Source of the DNA: Elusimicrobiaceae bacterium
GTDB lineage: Bacteria; Elusimicrobiota; Elusimicrobia; Elusimicrobiales; Elusimicrobiaceae
NCBI GenBank assembly: GCA_045580265.1
Contig: JAZNNM010000002.1
Location: forward strand, 114,721-178,720
DNA: 64,000 nt
Reading direction: 5' to 3'
Part shown: positions 24,807-58,350 of the stretch, piece after piece
Position numbering within the stretch: the stretch's first letter is position 1
Layout: each line of letters begins with the position of its first letter
The notes under the pieces: model-generated
Told to the model about the DNA's origin: nothing
The model's database searches: none
The model's input: the letters and a program-made list of their open reading frames with translations, nothing else
Translations under genes and position numbers: made by a program

Positions 24807-25150
24807 GGGGGTGTAATAGATTCGACGGGTATCTGTTGCCGCTCGGGAGCAAGTGCCGGTTGGCCAGGCCGGCTAAAATAGGGCCACAAAAATAAGCAAC
24901 AACAATCAAGTTGCCTGGGCTAACGCTTAGTCCCACCGCTCCTTTAGTGTCTTCCATGCGCTAAAGGGTTGCGGTCACTACATGGAACGCGGTAAAGCGG
25001 GCGCGGTTCGTCCGGCTTTACTTAAGACTCACGAACCAAACCGTAAACGTGCCGTTTCGCGCTTAGTTTACGGTTACAAAAGCGAAACTAAACTTGTAGT
25101 GCCTGAGAGGAAAAGATGTTCGGACGGGGGTGCGAATCCCCCCACCTCCA
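24807..25150 (+). ncRNA. ssrA: tmRNA (SsrA)
   Basis: 5' GGGGGTG-TAATAGATTCGAC pairs with 3' CACCTCC-A including the G3.U70 alanine determinant; T-arm GGGGG-TGCGAAT-CCCCC; internal tag frame ends at TAG 24928-24930; 344 nt. Confidence 0.93.
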
Positions 25151-25224
25151 CTTTTTTATGGAAAATAAATTGAATGCGGAAATTGAAAAAATAAATAGAT
25201 TTTATCTTTACAACGGGAGTATTT

Positions 25225-51988: not shown

Positions 51989-52738
51989 TTACAGATATAA
52001 GACCTTATATCCCAACATGATTTCCCAATCTTGGGAGTATTTATTCCCTGCCAAGTGCCAACCGCCGCGTAAATAAATGGAAGATCCCACATTTACCATG
52101 GTGCCGATTTCGAATTCTCCGATCAGCTCTGCGTCTCCGGGGGTTTCGTAATCAACTGTATAGCGCGGGTCAAATTCAAACCACCACTTGTTATCCGACA
52201 TGTAACCGAAAATCATGCGGTAGCGGCTTTCATGGATATCGTCTCGCCCGGAGACTCCCGCAAAGGAAAAAATGTGGCGATATTCGGCCTCTATAAAGAA
52301 GTTGGGGTTTAACTTCCATACTAAAAAAATTTCCGGTTCAATGTAAGCTTTTCCATCACCTAGTTCATGGTGGGTGGCCGTGGGGAGCGTAAGTTCCGCC
52401 CCTAATCCGTAAGAGAAAACTTTGGTGGGAGAATAGTCGGTGTAAAAGCCGGACACCATAATATCGCCTAAGCCTTTTTCACTTATTTCTCCTTCCCCAT
52501 AGCGGGTAAAGGGAATTTCGGCACCTAACTTCCAGTGTTGGTTAATCTTGAAAGAGGGTTTAATTTCTACGGTGGCAACCGTTTTGTTTTTGCTGTCGTC
52601 TTTGGCTTTGTAGCGGGGTTTAATTTCCAAAGAGGTTACGTTTTCGGTGGGGATTACGCCGTGGATATCTTGCAGTTGGGCAAAGGCTGAAAGGGAAGCG
52701 GTTAGCAGGAAAAGTAAACAAATAATTTTCTTAATCAT
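51989..52738 (-). CDS. Outer-membrane beta-barrel protein (transporter-like)
   Basis: Signal peptide MIKKIICLLFLLTASLSAFA; GLGD and LGDG loops with amphipathic strands, as in MetA/SphA-like channels; AGGAG RBS. Confidence 0.65.
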   Translation of the reverse strand: MIKKIICLLFLLTASLSAFAQLQDIHGVIPTENVTSLEIKPRYKAKDDSKNKTVATVEIKPSFKINQHWKLGAEIPFTRYGEGEISEKGLGDIMVSGFYTDYSPTKVFSYGLGAELTLPTATHHELGDGKAYIEPEIFLVWKLNPNFFIEAEYRHIFSFAGVSGRDDIHESRYRMIFGYMSDNKWWFEFDPRYTVDYETPGDAELIGEFEIGTMVNVGSSIYLRGGWHLAGNKYSQDWEIMLGYKVLYL

Positions 52739-52819
52739 AATGACTCCTAATAAAATATTGGAAAAATATTGTAGCAAATTTATAAAAAATCTTTTTTCGT
52801 TCCCAAATAAAAATTTATT

Positions 52820-52828
52820 TGCTATAAT
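52820..52828 (+). promoter_or_regulatory. Extended -10 promoter upstream of tRNA-Ser
   Basis: TGcTATAAT, 33 nt upstream of the tRNA 5' end. Confidence 0.6.
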
Positions 52829-52861
52829 AAATAAGTAATGATTAGAAAGTACTCCGTTTTT

Positions 52862-52948
52862 GGAGAGGTGGCCGAGTGGTTGAAGGCGCAGTCCTGGAAA
52901 GACTGTATACGGGAAACCGTATCGAGAGTTCGAATCTCTCCCTCTCCG
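52862..52948 (+). tRNA. tRNA-Ser(GGA)
   Basis: GGAGAGG/CCTCTCC acceptor stem, CAGTC-CT-GGA-AA-GACTG anticodon arm, long variable arm, GAGAG-TTCGAAT-CTCTC T-arm, G discriminator; CCA not encoded. Confidence 0.97.
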
Positions 52949-52975
52949 TATTAATTTAGAAACCCCGCGAAAGCG
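52936..52975 (+). repeat. 40-bp direct repeat, copy 1 (tRNA-Ser 3' end plus terminator)
   Basis: CTCTCCCTCTCCGTATTAATTTAGAAACCCCGCGAAAGCG, identical to 53154-53193. Confidence 0.97.
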
Positions 52976-52984
52976 GGGTTTTTA
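52959..52984 (+). terminator. Intrinsic terminator after tRNA-Ser
   Basis: AAACCCCGC-gaaa-GCGGGGTTTTT. Confidence 0.88.
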
Positions 52985-53153
52985 ATTCATAAAGAAAGAG
53001 TGGAGCGGCATAAACTGCTTTATGCCGCGTAGAGATTCGAAGCCCGGAGCGATGTTTTTGTTTGAGCCTACCGAAGGTTAAAATAGGCGAAAGGCAAAAA
53101 CCGCGAGGGCGGTTCCGGGCGAAATTTTCGTCAGGAAATTTACGCAGGACGGA
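52985..53153. mobile_element. Putative miniature non-coding element inserted at the tRNA-Ser 3' end
   Basis: Bounded by the 40-bp direct repeats; contains a perfect 10-bp hairpin, an inverted copy of the tRNA T-arm and nested stems; no coding capacity. Mobility is inferred. Confidence 0.55.
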
Positions 53154-53193
53154 CTCTCCCTCTCCGTATTAATTTAGAAACCCCGCGAAAGCG
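53154..53193 (+). repeat. 40-bp direct repeat, copy 2 (duplicated tRNA 3' end plus degraded terminator)
   Basis: Identical 40-mer, followed by TGGTTTTTT instead of GGGTTTTT, which puts a mismatch in the terminator stem. Confidence 0.97.
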
Positions 53194-53227
53194 TGGTTTT
53201 TTAATCAAATTTTATTTTCTTAAATAT

Positions 53228-54235
53228 CTATCTAAACAGCGTAAGTAAAATGCCTTTGAGTACAATTTTGGGATCGGATGCGGAAGAAGATTTAAAAGCC
53301 GTGTCTGCTTCGATAATGCGGTTTAAGGCGTTGAGAAAATTCTTTTGCGCCGGGAAGCGCCGAGCCGCGGAAACAAGGCGGTTTTCCCAGTACATAAGTC
53401 CGGCTGCGCGCAGGATATCGGCCGGAGCCATACCGGCTTCGCTCATGCGTTTGATGCGTGCCATTTTAAGAATGGGGAAAGTCATTTTACTTAAAATCCC
53501 GACGGGTTCTTCTCCGTCATCAAGTAATTTATCTAGTAATTTAATCGCGCGGTTTTTATCGCACGCAGTAATGGCATTGGCCAACTCAAAGGGGTTTTCT
53601 TCTTTGCTAAAACCGATGCAGGCCAATACATCGTCTTGTGTAATGGTTTTATCTGTACGGTCTAACGTATAGAGATATAATTTTTCGATTTCGTTTTCCA
53701 GTGCATTTAATTCGCCGCCTACGCTTTCGCATAATAAATCCAACGAATCAAAGTCGGCACTGAGGCCTTTTTCTCGCATTTTTTCGCGAGTCCATAAACT
53801 TAATTCTTCTTTTTGAAGTTCATCAAAATTAGCCACGCGCCCCGCATCTGAACACACTTCGGCAAGGACTTTTTCCGTTTTCATCTTTTTGGAGTCGTTA
53901 TGCGTCAAAATAAGTGTGGTCGTCGGGAGAGGATTATCTAAATAACGAATCAGCGCCTCTTTGGGTTCTTTGCGTAATTTTTCTATACCTGTTAACACCA
54001 AGAGCCGCGCATCCGAAAATACAGGCGCGGTATTGGCCATAGCCAAAAGTTCACCTAAATCGGCCTTGTCAGCTTCGGCTTGATAAAAATTAAAATCATC
54101 GGGATGCAAAATTTTGCGGATTTTTTGAATAACCAAATTTTTGCGATACACATCTTCCCCGGTTAATAAGTAAACGGGAGCAACGGTATTTTTGGCCAGT
54201 TCGGCATTTAATTTTTCCGCAGTAATTTTTGCCAT
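53228..54235 (-). CDS. holA: DNA polymerase III delta subunit
   Basis: PVYLLTGED, NTAPVFSDARL, ENEIEKL and NPFELANAI; follows leuS-lptE as in the conserved operon. Confidence 0.92.
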   Translation of the reverse strand: MAKITAEKLNAELAKNTVAPVYLLTGEDVYRKNLVIQKIRKILHPDDFNFYQAEADKADLGELLAMANTAPVFSDARLLVLTGIEKLRKEPKEALIRYLDNPLPTTTLILTHNDSKKMKTEKVLAEVCSDAGRVANFDELQKEELSLWTREKMREKGLSADFDSLDLLCESVGGELNALENEIEKLYLYTLDRTDKTITQDDVLACIGFSKEENPFELANAITACDKNRAIKLLDKLLDDGEEPVGILSKMTFPILKMARIKRMSEAGMAPADILRAAGLMYWENRLVSAARRFPAQKNFLNALNRIIEADTAFKSSSASDPKIVLKGILLTLFR

Positions 54236-57462: not shown

Positions 57463-58350
57463 CTATCCGCGCGGATGAAACTTTTTGTGCTTGTTTTTTA
57501 AATCGCTTATATCCAGATGGGTATAGATTTGCGTAGTGGTTAGATTGGCATGCCCCAGCATTTCCTGTAAACTGCGTAAATCGGCACCGCCCGTGAGCAG
57601 GTGCGAGGCAAATGTATGACGGAAAAGATGTGGGTGGAGCGGTTGAGATATATTGGCTTTTCGGCCTAAAGCAGCCAAATCTTTCCACACGGTTACGCGG
57701 CTTACTTTTTTGCCGCGGTTATTTAAAAATACTTCGGAACCGACGTCTTTGTTAGCAAAATGTCCTTCCCGTACGGCAAGATAGGCTTTTAAGCGTTCGC
57801 ATGCTTGCGGATGAATAGGTACAAAACGTTGTTTGCCTCCTTTTCCAAAGGCGAGTACCCACCCTTCCTGTGTGTTAATGTTTTCTAAACGTAGATTAAT
57901 AAGCTCACTAACGCGAAGCCCCGCTGCGTATAAGAGTTCTACGATGGTTAAAGTTCGGATTTCATCAAATTTTTCCGCCGGATAAGATAAAAGCCGTTCC
58001 ATTTCCTCTCGTGTAAGTTGGGTGGGAATCTTTTGCGACAGGTGCGGGGATTTAACAAAACGGGTCGGGTCTTCTTTTATTTTTTCTTCAATCATTAAAA
58101 AGCGGTAAAAACATTTGATTGCTTCCATTTTACGAAATACACTGGCAGTGGCTAAATTTTCCACCACACGCAACTGATAGTTGTATTGTTCCAAAAAATC
58201 AGGAGAGGCATCTTCGGGTTTTAAATCGTTGGCGGCACAATACTCTAAGTAACTTTCCACATCGGAACCGTAGGAAAGGATCGTATTTTTGGCCAGTTGC
58301 CGCTCAAAAGATAAATGGTTGATGAAGTCTTCCAATAACAGTGTATCCAT
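57463..58350 (-). CDS. xerD: Site-specific tyrosine recombinase, XerD type
   Basis: LYAAGLRVSEL, GKGGKQRFVP, HPHLFRHTFASHLL, ADLRSLQEMLGH and TTQIYTH motifs. Confidence 0.88.
   Translation of the reverse strand: MDTLLLEDFINHLSFERQLAKNTILSYGSDVESYLEYCAANDLKPEDASPDFLEQYNYQLRVVENLATASVFRKMEAIKCFYRFLMIEEKIKEDPTRFVKSPHLSQKIPTQLTREEMERLLSYPAEKFDEIRTLTIVELLYAAGLRVSELINLRLENINTQEGWVLAFGKGGKQRFVPIHPQACERLKAYLAVREGHFANKDVGSEVFLNNRGKKVSRVTVWKDLAALGRKANISQPLHPHLFRHTFASHLLTGGADLRSLQEMLGHANLTTTQIYTHLDISDLKNKHKKFHPRG

Follow-up and report, generated by a model that had tools for sequence, protein, structure and literature searches.

Why does the 3′ end of a tRNA gene, together with its terminator, occur twice within a few hundred nucleotides when no gene lies between the two copies? 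This question is raised by a locus in a stretch of 64,000 nucleotides (positions 114,721 to 178,720 of contig JAZNNM010000002.1, assembly GCA_045580265.1; here called the window) from an Elusimicrobiaceae bacterium. An intact tRNA-Ser(GGA) gene is present on the + strand at 52862-52948 according to Infernal with the Rfam tRNA model (58.9 bits), and ARAGORN places its limits at 52861-52949. A preliminary description, made from the sequence alone, reported a perfect 40-bp repeat of the 3′ end of this gene and its terminator. It proposed either a collapsed island or a non-autonomous element of ∼200 bp that targets tRNA 3′ ends and is mobilized in trans.

The repeat is as originally described. Its two copies (52936-52975 and 53154-53193) are identical at 40 of 40 positions and lie 218 bp apart, and a longer alignment extends the similarity to 54 nt at 94% identity (52936-52989 and 53154-53207). 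The T-stem 5′ strand (52924-52928, +) and the T-loop TTCGAAT (52929-52935, +) of the tRNA precede the first copy, which is the tail in actual use by tRNA-Ser(GGA). This copy (52936-52989, +) contains tRNA nt 61-73, consisting of the T-stem 3′ strand (52936-52940), the acceptor 3′ strand (52941-52947), and the discriminator (52948). These are followed by a 14-nt spacer and by the trailer with terminator 1 (hairpin 52963-52978, T-run 52979-52983), most of which falls within the perfect repeat. Sequence comparison assigns 53150-53207 (+) to copy 2. This copy opens with a decayed T-loop part, CGGAC (53150-53154); beginning at 53154, it perfectly repeats tRNA nt 61-73 and the spacer, and continues into terminator 2 (53181-53196). 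As was also noted earlier, the stem of this second terminator carries a mismatch: T at 53194 replaces the G of copy 1 and creates a C·T opposition. The 178-bp core likewise encodes no integrase, and no open reading frame of at least 60 aa is found between the repeat copies, where the sole frame is one of 36 aa with a TTG start (53062-53172).

The duplication of the tRNA-Ser(GGA) tail is genuine and is not a misassembly. Depth was checked with assembled contigs and unitigs from four independent ruminant-gut metagenomes. In these data, a 245-nt unitig (52939-53183) has a depth close to that of its flanks (141.7 versus 119.8 and 126.4; 12.2 versus 13.6 and 13.1), and the repeat unitig, with a depth of 263, is covered about twice as deeply as the inter-repeat unitig. 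Misassembly, which the preliminary description had itself raised as a concern, is excluded because the inter-repeat depth is normal and equals that of the flanks, the repeat depth is about twofold, and the same architecture is repeated at ∼170 other loci. The locus is stable across the four metagenomes. Neither a 218-bp circle junction, which had been suggested as a sign of excision, nor an empty-site allele of this locus is present in the contigs of the four metagenomes, in which rare forms are invisible.

A search with the core, proposed earlier as a way to find copies at other tRNA 3′ ends, returned tRNA-linked matches both in the same genome and in relatives. The 1.43-Mb genome contains two further copies of the 178-nt core (three in total), one behind tRNA-Ser(GCT) that is 86% identical and one behind tRNA-Thr(CGT) that is 76% identical. 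The tail repeat that follows each of these copies is that of its own tRNA, not the Ser(GGA) tail. BLAST with the core gave matches in 34 of 36 other genomes of the genus. Of 40 genomes sampled from the genus, 39 carry the element family, at up to 13 or more copies each, tandem ones among them. A covariance model detects the element in 74 of 201 Elusimicrobiota genomes, representing 18 of 76 genera. Many genomes have at least 13 covariance-model matches against ∼45 tRNA genes per genome. Occupancy is nevertheless uneven between close species, ranging from one to at least 13 of ∼45 tRNAs, and in one genome of the family, assembled as a single contig, the covariance model finds no copy. Two conserved blocks of the element recur in metagenome-assembled genomes of the ultra-small CPR bacteria, including Saccharibacteria, Parcubacteria/Paceibacterota, and others, such that the core is conserved to the nucleotide level across two phyla.

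Linkage to tRNA genes was assessed with 173 non-redundant units, of which 158 were counted after units at contig ends were left out. A same-strand tRNA gene lies 4-60 nt upstream in 112 of these 158 units, and 32 anticodon types are represented. Units lacking a nearby upstream tRNA are mostly later members of tandem arrays, which have a period of ∼173-205 nt and include some identical members; truncated fragments are also present. A second dispersed repeat (...CGCCTAGAA...TTTCTTTGAAAAAT...) is located just 5′ of certain units that have no called tRNA (L015, L023, L026, L031, and L100), and two units from Paceibacterota and Saccharibacteria (L111 and L130) are located directly 3′ of a protein-coding gene instead of a tRNA.

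Comparison of orthologous loci reveals filled and empty sites. For example, tRNA-Thr(TGT) is empty in this genome and filled in a relative, where the orthologous gene downstream is kept. Empty sites, which the preliminary description had suggested looking for, thus exist at orthologous tRNA loci, but none was seen for tRNA-Ser(GGA) itself in the contigs of the four metagenomes. Across genomes, cores at different tRNA genes (Tyr and Thr, Tyr and Met, or Leu and Ser) can be 93-97% identical, variable tip included, while their arms, their P1 stems, and their tails (defined below) are each different. The nearest neighbor of a core resides at the same tRNA type in 15 of 70 cases, compared with 5% expected by chance. 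In a single genome, most copies that reside at different tRNAs share 77-89% identity, so that modular exchange is visible and very recent jumps are unproven. Strong constraint combined with gene conversion could instead account for the near-identical cores.

An alignment of units analyzed with RNAalifold yields a conserved fold, which was absent from the preliminary description, as were two tRNA-antisense arms and the start of the repeat inside the T-loop. Each unit has a fixed order: tRNA tail (nt 56-73), spacer or terminator, arm 1, hairpin P1, arm 2, a two-armed core, and a second tail. In the window, P1 (53005-53028, +) has the sequence GCGGCAUAAA-CUGC-UUUAUGCCGC. Its loop is conserved and its stem covaries freely, with 98.3% pairing and compensatory changes at all nine pairs. 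The first, long arm of the core (53042-53110, +) is composed of P2 (53042-53045 with 53107-53110; 75% paired), the near-invariant P5 (GCGAUGUUUUUGUUUG with CAAAAACCGCG, including fixed U·G pairs; 98.8% paired), and a variable tip, Pv (91% paired). The second arm (53113-53150, +) is formed by P3 (53113-53116 with 53147-53150; 75% paired) enclosing hairpin P4 (53117-53146, loop GUCA), which is 96.4% paired and has compensatory changes at all 10 pairs.

Over the whole fold, 87.9% of cells are paired among 120 units aligned with model R1. The covariation value is 0.414, compared with 0.136 for shuffled alignments (none of 500 reaches 0.414) and with at most 0.092 when the partners are slid, and a plain MAFFT alignment agrees with the R1 fold. 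Because the U·G pairs are invariant, the + strand, which has the sense of the tRNA, is the functional strand. A scan of positions 52000-54000 with Rfam 15 at E values up to 10 returned tRNA only, and the core matched no ribozyme, intron, or sRNA model. A sub-family with a different P3/P4 arm (GGGGTCGCGAG...CTTGTGACC) includes L016, L031, L046, L061, L118, L131, and CPR loci L044-L145. This variant arm is common to some Elusimicrobia units and to CPR “type B” units, in which the P1 5′ strand corresponds to the last 5 nt of the tRNA plus the trailer and the end repeat is only 5-7 nt long.

P1 is flanked by the two arms, which together form the antisense of nt 54-73 in the neighboring tRNA. Arm 2 of the window (AGAGATTCGAA; 53031-53041, +) is a perfect antisense match to tRNA nt 54-64 (52929-52939), which form the T-loop and the T-stem 3′ strand. 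Its final AA, opposite T54-T55, is invariant among units. Arm 1 (52994-53005, +) is antisense to the acceptor 3′ strand, ranging up to the discriminator. The match is weak at this locus, where GGAG (53002-53005) pairs with CTCC, and clearer in other units, as with TGCGCCC opposite GGGCGCA. The helix formed by arm 1 (helix 1) is 65.5% paired, and each of its six pairs has changed on both sides. Arm 2 differs according to the tRNA, with AGAGATTCGAA at Ser, GGGGGATCGAA at Thr, CGGGAGTCGAA at Arg, AAGGGACTTGAA at Leu, and CTAGGATTCGAA at Gln genes.

It is the real tRNA that the arms follow, and not the downstream copy, which decays. For the longest exact antisense match between a unit and its own tRNA, the median is 9 nt and the mode 11 nt, versus 5 nt for mismatched pairs. 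For the 9-nt core of arm 2, the mean number of mismatches is 0.85 with the unit's own tRNA, 2.25 with its own tail, and 3.04 with other tRNAs. When equal 30-nt search spaces are compared, this core is matched better by the tRNA than by the unit's own tail in 61 units, equally well in 23, and worse in none. Moreover, T54-T55, the partners of the invariant AA, are missing from the downstream copy. Among 201 arm mismatches, 48 are G·U, a count confounded by flank positions. At genes that do not encode the CCA end, the three nucleotides 5′ of arm 1 are TTT or TTA and never TGG. Because the arms have no complement to this non-encoded CCA, they read the gene or the precursor rather than the mature 3′ end, and pairing with the mature tRNA in the manner of a primer-binding site (PBS) was rejected for the same lack of a complement to the added CCA. 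In several units next to a TTCGAGT T-loop (L020, L079, L088, L073, L081, and L094), which belong to several tRNA types and genomes, arm 2 reads ACGAGAA where ACTCGAA is the expected antisense, such that the inner three bases are sense and not antisense. Other units at a TTCGAGT T-loop (L100, L147, and L041) have perfect antisense.

The junctions of the element are unequal in character. Identity between copy 2 and the tRNA is 0.05-0.16 at nt 54-55, 0.47 at nt 56, ∼0.8 at nt 57-61, and ∼0.97 at nt 65-73. This jump across nt 54-57 indicates that the left edge is sharp and lies inside the T-loop at 55|56. From there the repeat continues at least as far as nt 73; with nt 56-73 provided by the unit, the tRNA remains intact. 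Read most simply, this pattern means that a new tail arrives with the unit and that the old tail is displaced downstream, where it decays. The right edge of the repeat varies from the end of the tRNA (often) to +70 nt, and in some units, including that of the window, it follows the terminator. Sometimes it falls inside a truncated second unit that ends exactly at the P1 loop AAACTGCTTT (the C3 copy of this genome, L027, and L076). A right end that varies in this manner does not fit a fixed staggered cut. The P1 loop is also a recurrent breakpoint at G000:C3:10063-10378 (− strand), L027, L076, L008, and L113, and in some units the tail fragment CAAATCC is joined directly to the P1 loop of the next unit. 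This breakpoint may be an origin, terminus, or nick site of copying.

Two contigs from gut metatranscriptomes cover 52895-53132 (identical except for one inserted base) and 52907-53126. Each joins the 3′ half of the tRNA, terminator 1, and most of the core, whereas the protein genes on both flanks have zero cover in these metatranscriptomes. Because these RNA contigs, which by their nature give neither strand nor ends, extend across terminator 1, the element is present as RNA at least partly through terminator 1 read-through. Transcription of the + strand runs on from the tRNA into the unit. Compensatory changes above the controls and RNA contigs over the core are both observed, as is expected for a structured RNA. 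Minimum-energy prediction for the run-on transcript has tail copy 1 masked by the arms and copy 2 engaged by the tRNA body; for a unit folded alone, it has the arms close the fold by pairing with copy 2.

To identify proteins that might move these units, 41 genomes of the genus were searched. Reverse transcriptase (RVT_1) is encoded in five of the 41 genomes and RtcB (PF01139) in two, in neither case including this genome. The HUH transposase Y1_Tnp (PF01797) is present in 12 of 41, uncorrelated with copy number, and is absent from this genome and from G020 and G015, which carry 11 or more units each. EndA (PF01974), the IS110 DEDD domain (PF01548; positive controls were detected), and the TnpB zinc ribbon (PF07282) were found in none of the 41. 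Two Xer-like recombinases of ∼300 aa are encoded in every genome of the genus, and G015 and G008, with 11 or more units, have no recombinase of that class beyond these two. No match to the core was found in IMG/VR viral contigs or INPHARED phage records. The preliminary description was thus correct in placing a ∼200-bp non-autonomous element at tRNA 3′ ends, where the core recurs, but its mobilization in trans is unproven because no candidate mobilizing enzyme was found.

Several other genes and candidates were considered. One of the two Xer-like tyrosine recombinase genes (∼300 aa) present throughout the genus is located at 57511-58017 on the − strand of the window (G000:C2:172231-172737), ∼4.3 kb from the element. 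Elsewhere, weakly integrase-like ORFs of 381-391 aa (L186 2329-3474, L187 2471-3616, and L188 4526-5671, all − strand; L192 1727-2902) are found beside either tRNA-Ser itself or part of its tail (CTCCCTCTCCG), and three of them are directly 5′ of mini-element arrays. The 381-aa integrase-like ORFs were rejected as partners, as they look like parts of ordinary tRNA-Ser islands, in which the repeat begins near nt 63 and not nt 56. For the islands beside three arrays, the tRNA-Ser gene is read as having held units before the island entered it. A tmRNA gene is present at 24807-25153 (+ strand; G000:C2:139527-139873; RF00023, 130.9 bits), although ARAGORN makes no tmRNA call in the window or the genome. 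This gene, found by Infernal, is a normal tmRNA at another place in the window; the element thus has no relation to it, and a hidden or two-piece tmRNA was dismissed. P1 was likewise rejected as a dif site, given that other P1 alleles covary away from CATAA/TTATG.

The element fits no mobile-element or RNA family tested, Rfam 15 holds no model for it, and full-text literature searches returned no description of it. The explanation that we favor, although its chances of being correct are roughly even, is that the units constitute an undescribed family of gene-less mini-elements that are addressed by base pairing and restore the tRNA gene that they enter. The 218-bp insert would then be one old, vertically kept copy of a structured mini-element family residing at the T-loop and 3′ end of tRNA genes. 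Its arms would serve as the address: A folded single strand, most likely RNA, might pair with nt 54-73 of the tRNA gene or its precursor, and this pairing would steer the unit into the 55|56 site. Each insertion would restore its target and so permit tandem re-insertion. The catalyst might be supplied by recombination or repair in the host, or by an unrecognized protein acting in trans on the conserved core. Features that resemble bridge and seek RNAs of IS110/IS1111 and the omega RNA of IS605/IS607 TnpB include a structured noncoding RNA of ∼150-180 nt, encoded by the element, with programmable segments complementary to a target. Unlike these systems, the element has no DEDD or TnpB protein in any of the 41 genomes searched, its arms read the same target strand, and its repeat is 18 nt or longer.

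Among the rival explanations, the chance that the feature is an isolated scar of island deletion or an assembly error is negligible. The duplicated tRNA tails do resemble attL and attR, but the earlier suggestion of a collapsed island gains no support from a core that is a conserved, multicopy family at many tRNAs and that has normal depth in independent metagenomes. A better, although still rather unlikely, candidate is an att-flanked derivative, comparable to CIMEs or IMEX, that is moved in trans by a tyrosine recombinase (host XerC/XerD or the integrase of an island or phage absent from these assemblies) with crossover in the T-loop. Elements that integrate into tRNA and tmRNA genes reportedly use the T-loop as one sublocation (Williams, 2002), and a repeat from the T-loop to the tRNA end or beyond is the classical signature of this sublocation. 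Two Xer-like genes are available in all genomes, integrase islands use tRNA-Ser in this genus, and the commonest P1 allele, CATAA-N6-TTATG, is superficially dif-like. As with tyrosine-integrase islands, prophages, and CIMEs, a replacement tRNA 3′ end, a repeat start in the T-loop, a displaced downstream tail, and tandem accretion are observed. The fixed tRNA sublocation and gene restoration of this class are found, but an integrase that the element owns or has available is not. An integrase would neither need nor maintain arms that covary with 32 types of tRNA target, and the P1 arms covary as a hairpin with no kept binding sequence. The island repeat start near nt 63, the absence of integrases beyond Xer in genomes with 11 or more units, and the absence of the core from viral and phage records also argue against this explanation. 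Unlike tRNA islands and CIMEs, the element is only ∼200 bp long, many of its host genomes have no integrase, and its fold covaries in an RNA-like manner. Movement as single-stranded DNA by an HUH-type enzyme, as in IS200/IS605 or REPIN/RAYT systems, with the P1 loop as the nick site, is a good deal less probable again. In IS608, short guides next to a hairpin recognize the target and cleavage sites by base pairing. The same logic is apparent in arms that flank a hairpin, and the recurrence of breakpoints at the P1 loop and the strand-specific function are also consistent with this mode of movement. Further similarities to IS200/IS605 and REP/REPIN-RAYT are small size and the fact that the known systems serve non-autonomous copies in trans. 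However, IS200/IS605 elements insert next to a 4-5-nt target without duplicating it and use guides of 4-5 nt, whereas the units have guides of 18-20 nt, are transcribed, reside only at tRNA tails, and generate a tail repeat of 18 nt or longer. They also have no consistent association with a Y1 transposase, which is missing from this genome and two others with high copy numbers.

Two further rivals assign the function to the RNA itself. The core could be a small ribozyme in a self-splicing or self-inserting RNA, with arms that serve as an internal guide similar to the IGS of group I introns, and it could cut and join at 55|56. Arm 2 does span this junction, with AA on T54-T55 upstream and 9 nt paired downstream. 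There are two alternative predicted pairings, in which an arm engages copy 1 or copy 2, and no protein partner was found. Thermoproteales archaea have transposable tRNA introns, some of which occupy T-loop positions, and the element shares with group I, group II, and archaeal tRNA introns a location inside tRNA genes, a guide across the junction, and a tRNA that stays functional. Nevertheless, Rfam contains no ribozyme or intron model that matches the core, the reverse transcriptase needed to turn an RNA event into DNA is lacking, and copy 2 is often too decayed to complete the tRNA after splicing. Splicing is unnecessary because the exon tail is duplicated. The EndA and RtcB of an archaeal-type tRNA intron are encoded in none and two of the 41 genomes, respectively, and the reverse transcriptase and CCA complementarity of a retroelement primed by or copied from tRNA (a retron or group II intron, for example) are likewise not found with the element. 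We therefore regard this ribozyme hypothesis as highly improbable. We would assign an equally slim chance to a specific proposal wherein the three-way-junction RNA alone catalyzes cutting and joining at 55|56, carries a programmable address of 18-20 nt, and is fixed in DNA by a host pathway. The main rival, unlikely but the most serious of the alternatives, is that the units are structured noncoding RNAs that serve the host. Transcribed as tRNA run-ons, they would use their arms to pair with nt 54-73 of the neighboring tRNA, as a precursor or in trans, and would control or assist tRNA maturation, folding, or turnover. Such RNAs would have spread by duplication and been kept by selection. This possibility is consistent with the conservation of the core to the nucleotide across two phyla, with arms that follow the real tRNA while copy 2 decays, with the presence of the RNA and the stability of the locus, and with the predicted run-on fold in which tail copy 1 is masked. 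In contrast, the uneven occupancy among close species, the absence of the element from a one-contig genome of the family, the tandem identical units and truncated fragments, the sharp T-loop junction, and the decaying duplicate tail are all marks of a selfish repeat rather than a housekeeping RNA.

The mini-element hypothesis also has evidence against it. No enzyme was found, and none of the six enzyme families listed above, other than Xer, occurs in this genome. There is no sign of recent jumps in the identities among copies at different tRNAs, no empty or circular form of the tRNA-Ser(GGA) locus appears in the metagenomic contigs, and the variable right end of the repeat does not conform to a fixed staggered cut. 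Furthermore, arms that are kept while copy 2 decays could equally reflect an RNA function exerted in place to the benefit of the host.

These units also have practical consequences. In some Elusimicrobiaceae genomes, more than one-quarter of the tRNA genes carry one or more units, which break short-read assemblies at tRNA loci, create pseudo-tRNA tails, and are missed by current RNA annotation. Because they occur in Elusimicrobiota as well as in Patescibacteria, both an ancient origin and transfer between the phyla come into consideration. If the arms set the target, then the units would represent insertion that is addressed by base pairing without known partner enzymes, aimed at a safe and universal site, the tRNA tail, and able to repair the interruption that it causes. 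If true, this would constitute a new kind of bacterial mobile element or noncoding RNA, and it might also provide programmable insertion with a new principle.
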